Shown here in pieces: positions 27,815-28,062 of a DNA stretch of 64,000 nt. A program made the position numbers and the translations under genes. The notes below the pieces were generated by a model. The model made no database searches, was not told the origin of the DNA, and saw only the letters and a program-made list of their open reading frames with translations. The number at the start of each line of letters is the position of its first letter. Position 1 is the first letter of the stretch. Origin of the DNA: Escherichia phage vB_EcoM_ASO1B; sequence record MZ726792.1; one strand, given 5' to 3'.

Positions 27815-27827
27815 ATTTCAATAAAGT

Positions 27828-27856
27828 TGTTGACATTGAGATGTGACTACTTTATA
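27828..27856 (+). promoter_or_regulatory. sigma70-like promoter (TTGACA-17-TATAGT) inside tRNA array
   Basis: -35 27828-27833, -10 27851-27856. Confidence 0.55.
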
Positions 27857-28062
27857 GTAACCTTAGTTTTCGTTGCGTAGCGTCTATTTTGCAAATTTAA
27901 AATAAATGCAAACGACAATGTTTTTCTGGCAGTAGCTTGATAGGCTAAACACCAGTGAGGTCTTCCAATCCCTCATCAAAGAATTTGGCGTACTCGCCCA
28001 CGGTATGATTAATAAGGTGGGCATCTTTAAGGGCTTTCTAAGAGAGTCTTTAAAGATAATTA

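Follow-up and report, generated by a model that had tools for sequence, protein, structure and literature searches.

The stretch of 64,000 nucleotides (nt) of Escherichia phage vB_EcoM_ASO1B (MZ726792.1) that was analyzed here, hereafter the window, contains an array of 25 plus-strand tRNA genes (ARAGORN), and the segment 27815–28062 within this array is, as judged from its sequence, a copy of a conserved structured RNA and not a spacer. This element is very probably a gene for an RNA derived from transfer-messenger RNA (tmRNA): it clearly descends from the tmRNA system, and it probably works through that system as well. The RNA is devoid of the tRNA-like domain and joins an antisense 5′ arm to a tmRNA-like message domain. 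The chances seem about even that it serves as a trans-acting phage coding piece, which would dock on the host tmRNA, mask its template and offer its own. The window is 100% identical to vB_EcoM_ASO1A, a Felixounavirus (MZ726791; 243 is added to a record coordinate to obtain that of the window), and we refer to the locus by the latter name. Its parts, including the tag open reading frame (ORF), are as follows, in window coordinates.

27830–27835, plus strand: −35 hexamer TTGACA, part of the promoter annotated in MZ726791; hexamer and position conserved in Sf14 and Erwinia M7
27853–27858, plus strand: −10 hexamer TATAGT after a 17-nt spacer; predicted start near 27864–27866
27864–27875, plus strand: arm block 1, TAGTTTTCGTTG, complementary to host tmRNA nt 95–106 (tag codons 2–6); 12 base pairs (bp), one of them G-U
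27880–27890, plus strand: arm block 2, GCGTCTATTTT, complementary to tmRNA nt 81–91, which hold the linker, U85, A86 and G90-C91 of the resume codon
27885–27904, plus strand: self hairpin UAUUUU/AAAAUA of the minimum-free-energy fold, overlapping the palindrome at 27889–27911; an alternative to pairing with host tmRNA
27899–27907, plus strand: A-rich linker with U−5 (27903) and A−4 (27904); A−4 invariant and U−5 nearly so in tag-independent retrieval
27908–27943, plus strand: resume codon GCA and 10-codon tag ORF, ANDNVFLAVA (27908–27937), with tandem stops TGA TAG (27938–27943)
27926–27955, plus strand: helix-5-like hairpin, outer CUGG/CCAG and inner AGCU/GGCU, stop codon in the loop; compensatory changes
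27956–27988, plus strand: pseudoknot A; stem 1 UGAGG (27956–60)/CCUCA (27971–75), stem 2 loop CCAA (27965–68)/UUGG (27985–88)
27989–28022, plus strand: pseudoknot B; stem 1 CGUACU (27989–94)/GGUAUG (28002–07), stem 2 GCCCAC (27996–28001)/GUGGGC (28017–22)
28008–28015, plus strand: conserved loop of pseudoknot B, AUUAAUAA
28023–28057, plus strand: terminal hairpin of 17 bp separating the RNA from the following tRNA gene; conserved in Sf14 and M7, where the changes are compensatory; candidate processing or 3′-end structure
28063–28144, plus strand: atypical tRNA-Arg(UCU)-like gene (Rfam tRNA, 31.7 bits), outside the element, of which it forms the 3′ boundary

The element is widespread. A BLAST search with 27815–28062 matched 628 phage records from unrelated groups, almost none of which annotate it. 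Its core (27899–28023, 125 nt) is 70–81% identical in HK620 (Lederbergvirus), Kuttervirus (Ackermannviridae), Pollockvirus (Schitoviridae) and Klebsiella siphoviruses such as BUCT541, and a more divergent copy occurs in Erwinia Kolesnikvirus. Carriers thus far comprise Felix O1-like, ViI-like, N4-like and P22-like phages, siphoviruses, ~110-kb plasmids and E. coli prophages; in E. coli, 344 of 5426 complete genomes have the element, in prophages and on the ~110-kb plasmids, almost never annotated. Two pattern scans of IMG/VR yielded more than 150 further loci. A profile built from 60 copies outside Felixounavirus gave a single match in the 64-kb window, at 27868–28023 on the plus strand (E = 1.7e-28).

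The sequence-only reading of this segment had proposed either a small-RNA locus or a long leader for the downstream tRNAs. The former agrees with a conserved, structured plus-strand RNA gene, as indicated by the profile match, the covariation and a promoter at the 5′ end. The latter, in which the promoter would boost the downstream tRNAs and the RNA would act solely as a scaffold for processing, is disfavored and in our view very unlikely. The element does lie inside same-strand tRNA arrays, any nearby tRNA genes being always on its own strand, and a long hairpin and a tRNA gene follow it. It is nevertheless also found with no tRNA nearby, as in HK620, where it is located between the late promoter pR′/qut and the terminator tQ, and a mere leader would leave the tag frame, the two covarying pseudoknots and the match to host tmRNA unexplained.

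The anatomy of the message region is that of tmRNA. In ASO1A it reads AAUAAAU / GCA AAC GAC AAU GUU UUU CUG GCA GUA GCU UGA UAG, giving ANDNVFLAVA and two stops, as compared with the tag ANDENYALAA of E. coli tmRNA. As in tmRNA (SsrA; RF00023), an A-rich linker with U−5 and A−4 precedes a GCA resume codon, the short tag frame has no start codon and follows an AND...LA(A/V)A pattern with an Ala/hydrophobic C-terminus, the stops lie in a helix-5 loop, and pseudoknots accompany the message domain, here two, both downstream. The equivalents of U−5 and A−4 in E. coli tmRNA are U85 and A86, the latter being essential for frame choice (PMC2481249). The tag region can be aligned with E. coli ssrA. Sub-threshold Rfam matches to tmRNA, tmRNA_permuted, alpha_tmRNA or beta_tmRNA fall on it in ASO1A, HK620, BUCT541, GEC_N6, Pollock and the divergent copy L132, and the weak matches of ASO1A align exactly at 27908–27943; among the homologues scanned, Erwinia M7 gave no tmRNA-family match on this region.

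Since the first IMG/VR pattern included the resume motif, the retrieval was repeated with a pattern consisting of the downstream pseudoknot alone. In the copies so obtained, GCN AAY GAN was kept in 123 of 125, the other two being off by one base each; A−4 was present in 50/50 unique copies and U−5 in 47, with C in the remaining three. At least 19 tag variants were found, all of 10 codons and of the pattern AND[DENSA]-x-x-L-[AMIQ]-[AV]-A, and in each of the 50 distinct copies tabulated the ten codons are followed by UAA, UGA or UAG. Codons 1–3 and 10 vary essentially at the third position only, while codons 4–6 have strongly diverged, and synonymous alternatives are seen for leucine (CUG/UUG) and in AAC/AAU and GAC/GAU. 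Such variation is, at the sequence level, the signature of a translated frame. We considered and rejected a +1 frame starting from an AUG that overlaps the resume codon: its peptides differ in length and sequence from copy to copy, and the variation would fall on second codon positions.

The sequence-only reading had also noted the lack of any tRNA and of any ORF of 60 amino acids (aa) or more. We likewise find neither in 27815–28062, tRNAs having been sought with ARAGORN and Rfam, and the longest ORF there comprises 46 aa on the minus strand (27884–28024). That this ORF encodes the product of the locus is scarcely credible. It exists, and a hypothetical protein is annotated in some relatives (AYO145A_048 / WV8_gp050; also annotated in KR014248), but stops interrupt the homologous frame in most lineages, HK620, BUCT541 and Pollock among them. 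The substitutions fit the plus-strand helices and the tag frame, and it is also the plus strand that carries the promoter and the tRNAs. We rejected it as a small protein for the lack of frame conservation.

The structure of the RNA is also conserved. Plus-strand folding is better than that of shuffled sequences (z = −4.05, 0/200; minus strand, z = −1.98). The final four codons of the tag, together with the stop, make up the helix-5-like hairpin, and both downstream pseudoknots are H-type, with compensatory variants in all four stems. Stem 1 of pseudoknot A occurs as UGAGG/CCUCA, CAAGG/CCUUG and CGGGG/CCCCG, as CAGGG/CCCUG in Sf14 and as UAGGG/CCCUA in M7, and its stem 2 as CCGA/UCGG, CCAG/CUGG and CCAA/UUGG. 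Stem 1 of pseudoknot B, CGUACU/GGUAUG in ASO1A, is elsewhere CGCACU/GGUGUG, CGCAUU/GAUGUG or CGCAGU/GCUGUG, and its stem 2 has at least six variants in length and sequence, all of them paired. In an alignment of 34 sequences, 92.7% of the cells are paired, as against 31–47% when the partners are slid, 16 pairs show double-sided changes, and 0/500 shuffles match the observed values. Two motifs pointed out from the sequence alone find their place in this fold: the palindrome TTGCAAATTTAAAATAAATGCAA (27889–27911) belongs to the self hairpin around the resume codon, and the TGAGG/CCTCA hairpin (27956–27960 and 27971–27975) turns out to be stem 1 of a pseudoknot. The terminal hairpin at 28023–28057 lacks a U-tract and is therefore not an intrinsic terminator; it corresponds to conserved AAGAGCAUU...AGUGCUCUU stems that punctuate the RNA arrays of other phages.

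These data also bear on the suggestion that the element is the remnant of a captured ssrA gene, now decaying and without any function. The lack of the tRNA-like domain and of the tmRNA pseudoknots PK1 and PK4, and the scores below the Rfam thresholds, are as would be expected of such a remnant. We consider it highly improbable all the same, given the retention of the element in the 628 phage records across unrelated families, the compensatory changes in every stem and the intact tag frame. One divergent copy departs from this picture: in Klebsiella phage GArcari-2022b (L132, 930–975), an in-frame UAG shortens the tag to ANDN* and the antisense arm is weakened. This copy may be decaying or functionally different.

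In place of PK1, the element has an antisense arm and a hairpin. The whole 5′ domain (30–50 nt) is collinear with the reverse complement of tmRNA. Its 5′ end, (U)AGUUUUCGU, is invariant and perfectly complementary to E. coli tmRNA 97–106 (ACGAAAACUA, tag codons 3–6), and the core GUUUUCG is kept in all examined copies but one. In the BUCT541, HK620, Pollock, Kuttervirus and prophage types, the arm covers tmRNA nt 68–106, through the blocks UAGUUUUCGU, (CGUU)GCGACU, UUUGCGG and UUUUUA, which pair with ACGAAAACUA, AGUCGC(AACG), CCGCAAA and UAAAAA, respectively. In Ounavirinae, it covers nt 80/81–106/108 (ASO1A, 81–106; Erwinia M7, 80–108). The host region thus covered includes U85, A86, the resume codon G90CA and codons 1–6. 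Counted from the sequence, 22 nt separate the duplex end from the phage resume codon in the 68–106 types, approximately the spacing between U68 and G90 in the host. Poorer matches are seen in two divergent copies, L132 and L020, the latter retaining block 1 only.

Alignment scores of the arm are 29–42, as compared with 16–17 ± 2.4–2.7 for dinucleotide shuffles, and the observed score was equalled in 0–2 of 2000 arm shuffles and in 0/500 tmRNA shuffles; the excess is ~10 standard deviations in the lineages with the longest arms and 4–5 in ASO1A. As controls, the sense strand scored 12–15, and alignment of the arm to the message region of the element itself 11–17. The duplex energy is −27 to −40 kcal/mol, versus −15 ± 3 for shuffles. 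Cofolding with full-length tmRNA in a pseudoknot-free model favored the heterodimer by 6–16 kcal/mol, with the arm duplex kept and the phage resume codon unpaired. The signal is seen only by helix-level and collinear local alignment; prediction of whole-length duplexes with tmRNA was uninformative, the duplexes being long and spurious and z staying near 0 in most lineages. The predicted pairing is strong and involves the template region of the host tmRNA rather than the helices of the tRNA-like domain. This 26-nt target is single-stranded in tmRNA and is identical in many Enterobacterales, among them Erwinia, Pectobacterium, Enterobacter, Citrobacter, Serratia and Yersinia, as well as in other Gammaproteobacteria, which would explain the invariance of the arm across phages of different hosts. 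Given these models, it is rather likely that the RNA acts on host tmRNA by base pairing.

An RNA with such an arm could act as a pure anti-tmRNA. The arm would block or destabilize the host template, or the message part would titrate S1, RNase R or SmpB, and the phage tag would never be translated, the effect being inhibition of host trans-translation. This is the main rival to a coding piece, and we regard it as unlikely, though deserving serious consideration. The complementarity spans A86, the resume codon and codons 1–6, and the phage has no tRNA-like domain of its own. There is also a precedent: in the passages of PMC4131195 and PMC11915505 that cite Mao et al. 2009, mycobacteriophage DS6A has a truncated tmRNA, consisting of the tRNA domain only, that is thought to interfere with host trans-translation. 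As far as those passages describe it, DS6A has kept the tRNA-like domain and lost the message, whereas the element has kept the message and lost the tRNA-like domain, and the two inhibitors would be reciprocal. However, an antisense RNA or decoy would not require an open frame of 10 codons, and yet the length, the stop at codon 11 and the wobble variation are kept despite the divergence of codons 4–6, and the element maintains a U−5/A−4 resume context of its own.

The docking of a phage coding piece on host tmRNA appears to be the simplest model covering all the features, because there is no tRNA-like domain, the arm fits the host template better than its own, and the resume context, the coding-constrained frame and the tmRNA-like pseudoknots are all present. 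According to this model, the host RNA polymerase would make the RNA early, and it would be trimmed from the tRNA-array transcript. Its arm would then pair with the host tmRNA, the host providing the alanine-charged tRNA-like domain and SmpB. The pairing would hide the host resume signal and tag template and would bring the phage resume codon adjacent, so that rescued ribosomes could read the phage tag in place of the host tag. We put forward this last step, the tag swap by a parasitic coding piece, only tentatively.

Several points weigh against docking and tag swapping. The host template stands in cis to the tRNA-like domain, so a template in trans must compete with it, and a continuous duplex of 10–14 bp would be easily unwound by the ribosome. 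The arm would also disturb part of the host PK1, which normally helps function. The phage tags resemble ordinary degradation tags, and the benefit of a swap for the phage is therefore doubtful. The arm of ASO1A is the shortest tested (score 29 over tmRNA 81–106, against 17.0 ± 2.7 for shuffles, of which 2 of 2000 reach 29). Moreover, the lineages are homologous, so the antisense match counts as a single evolutionary observation, and the divergent copy L132 combines a premature UAG after four codons with a weak arm match.

Neither the window nor the rest of the phage genome supplies the missing half of a tmRNA. The element has no tRNA-like domain, with its acceptor stem bearing G3:U70, T arm and 3′ CCA. 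Neither in the window nor in the other 24.6 kb of the ASO1A genome did ARAGORN detect a tmRNA, and it found none at 77 homologous loci; in the 24.6 kb beyond the window, Rfam gave no match to a tRNA-like domain or tmRNA, and neither they nor the window held a match to tmRNA or tmRNA_permuted at threshold. For the element itself, no Rfam 15 family is above threshold, the tmRNA matches being sub-threshold only: RF00023 scores 16 bits against a gathering threshold of 47, and RF04321 scores 29 against 47 with a match that borrows the T arm of tRNA-Ile. Nor does the element have the 5′ acceptor strand and the upstream, CCA-ending acceptor piece of a two-piece tmRNA, the upstream gene in ASO1A being a complete tRNA-Ile. 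As a candidate acceptor strand, its 5′ end was rejected, no complementary CGAAAAC-N-CCA being found near any copy.

A phage-encoded split tmRNA would require an acceptor partner, for which two neighbours are conceivable. The first is the tRNA-like gene at 28063–28144, missed by ARAGORN, in which the D arm is reduced to 4 nt, 20 nt are inserted before the T arm, and G3:U70 and ACCA are encoded. The second is an RNA of 125–130 nt found downstream of the element in HK620, BUCT541 and Kuttervirus, with an acceptor stem, a D arm, a long insert and a T arm. The order of message RNA, long hairpin and tRNA-like RNA recurs in several lineages and, like the G3:U70 and ACCA of the ASO1A gene, would suit a split tmRNA. 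We nonetheless hold this explanation to be improbable. The same position as that of the 28063 gene is occupied by a normal tRNA-Arg(UCU) in Mooglevirus Sf14 and by tRNA-Leu(CAA) in M7, and the gene is therefore not a dedicated partner; as such it was ruled out. The 125–130-nt RNA accompanies only 44 of 118 copies of the element, has no G3:U70 and mostly lacks an encoded CCA, and in the five pairs recovered the two RNAs did not pair with each other in a consistent way, so that it was rejected as an obligate partner.

The 125–130-nt RNAs form an unannotated family that Rfam does not detect (L004 2722–2833, in HK620; L005 2725–2855; L006 ~2800–2925). They are closed by a 7-bp stem, UGUGGUG/CACCACA, and share a hairpin resembling a D arm, GCGCA-GGCUGA-UGCGC, a variable insert of 50–75 nt that replaces the anticodon arm, and a T-arm-like hairpin whose loop is AGUUCAGCA or the canonical UUCGAUU. 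Cassettes lie between the tmRNA-like RNA, the tRNA-like RNAs and the tRNAs at L004 2375–2725 (HK620), L005 2626–2724, and L006 2375–2450 and 2635–2790. In lambdoid phages, siphoviruses and Kuttervirus, these cassettes are bounded by a conserved long stem, GGUAAGAGCAUU ... AGUGCUCUUUCC, around variable inserts of 70–90 nt, some with a T arm; at the corresponding sites in ASO1A, 28023–28057 and 28636–28726, the stem is a bare 17-bp hairpin. The cassette stems may be processing sites, possibly for RNase III, or boundaries of non-coding RNA cassettes.

The promoter lies directly at the 5′ end of the conserved RNA. The TTGACA-17-TATAGT seen by the sequence-only reading is present, its position requiring a shift of about 2 nt (27830–27858, not 27828–27856), and GenBank MZ726791 already carries an annotation of the same promoter. 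With 11 of 12 consensus matches and a 17-nt spacer, it is the top-scoring promoter-like site within 25500–32500, a region in which such sites as a class are not enriched (16 found, 15.1 expected). In other Ounavirinae, TTGACA-17-TAAGAT (Sf14) and TTGACA-17-TAATCT (Erwinia M7) both lie 7 nt upstream of the matching RNA 5′ end; the −35 hexamer and the spacing to this end are thus conserved, and the −10 hexamer varies within the consensus. In the three Ounavirinae genera, the conserved 5′ end, (U)AGUUUUCG, starts 6–7 nt past the −10 hexamer. The BUCT541-like siphoviruses, an unrelated group, have TTGACA-17-TAGATT directly at the 5′ end of the element, and a promoter at this position recurs in several independent lineages. 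Very probably, 27830–28057 constitutes a gene, driven by a σ70 promoter, for a structured RNA of ~160–195 nt.

The element is therefore to be compared with several known systems. Relative to tmRNA proper, it has no tRNA-like domain, no PK1 and only two pseudoknots, and measures ~160 nt instead of 363; it is phage-encoded, and its additional 5′ arm is antisense to tmRNA itself. With the coding piece of two-piece (permuted) tmRNAs (RF01849-51, RF04321), it would share the principle of a message-domain RNA that works only when base-paired to an RNA with the acceptor end. True coding pieces, however, contribute the 5′ acceptor strand, are paired through helices of the tRNA-like domain and come from the same gene as their partner, whereas the predicted pairing of the element is antisense to the template region of its partner, the complete tmRNA of the host. 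Lacking a tRNA-like domain and scoring below threshold, it falls outside tmRNA proper, and, having neither an acceptor strand nor an upstream acceptor piece, it also falls outside the coding pieces of two-piece tmRNAs.

The stable RNAs C and D of phage T4 (rnaC and rnaD) are likewise small RNAs within a same-strand phage tRNA cluster. RNA C has a tRNA-like 3′ domain and neither RNA has a tag frame, and homology was rejected, there being no alignable sequence similarity to the element; to our knowledge, the function of rnaC and rnaD is still unknown. The prophage anti-small RNAs AgvB and AsxR of enterohaemorrhagic E. coli pair with host non-coding RNA, being short sponges for Hfq-dependent small RNAs. 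The element resembles them in its predicted pairing with a host non-coding RNA, but would instead target tmRNA and carry a replacement template.

Curated tmRNA forms are standard, permuted, intron-containing or without a coding sequence, and none is message-only. A 2014 survey (PMC4131195) listed complete phage tmRNAs only in mycobacteriophages and Bacillus phage G, in addition to the DS6A form, and a 2025 tmRNA database holds 79 phage tmRNA sequences, all of them complete genes. In the literature, our coverage of which was incomplete, we came upon no phage RNA described as message-only or as directed against tmRNA, so that an earlier description is possible.

The surrounding array shows other unusual features. 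In the 430-nt gap between tRNA-Asp and tRNA-Lys, a T arm and acceptor 3′ strand (27355–27378; GAAGG-TTCGATT-CCTTC ACTCGGC) are followed by an acceptor 5′ strand and D arm (27383–27406; GTCGAGT TG GTGTAATGGTAGCAC) that matches the upstream acceptor 3′ strand perfectly. A partial Rfam tRNA match covers 27322–27372 only, and the pieces at 27355–27406 look like a circularly permuted or rearranged tRNA gene. Just upstream of tRNA-Lys lies a 22-nt inverted repeat (27432–27453 and 27554–27575; 95% complementary, 100 nt between the arms), and relatives have an insertion of an HNH homing endonuclease within the stretch 27100–28800. Downstream of the element, ARAGORN missed a tRNA-Trp(CCA)-like gene at 28288–28371, in which the D region is oversized and which gives only a weak Rfam tRNA-Sec match of 23 bits; its acceptor stem is ATGGGAC/GTCCCAT, followed by G and CCA. 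Finally, the 21-nt TAAGGAGGTGGTCTGTATCTC (28189–28209), a strong Shine-Dalgarno sequence with GTG, is identical in ASO1A and Erwinia phage M7 (L131 ~1222–1242), with flanks of ~80% identity. The ORF downstream of it has 67 aa in ASO1A and ~5 codons in M7, and the stretch may be a conserved leader peptide or an RNA signal.

The tmRNA-SmpB system is the main bacterial system for ribosome rescue and protein tagging, and an antibiotic target. Its links to phages are decades old and poorly explained: λ-P22 hybrids and Mu depend on ssrA. An anti-tmRNA arm combined with a replacement template, in an RNA so widespread among phages, would give a concrete mechanism by which they manipulate ribosome rescue. 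If the proposed parasitic coding piece is real, which we hold to be possible rather than probable, it would mark the first instance in which a virus re-programs trans-translation; with the same reserve, the resulting complex would be the first tmRNA system assembled from the RNAs of two genomes. A message-only form would then be added to the known forms of tmRNA genes, lysogens may tag their proteins differently from non-lysogens, and the element would offer a natural design for the re-programming of tmRNA tags. In practical terms, our findings identify what occupies a conserved "gap" within the tRNA arrays of phages used in therapy and typing, such as those of the Felix O1 group.

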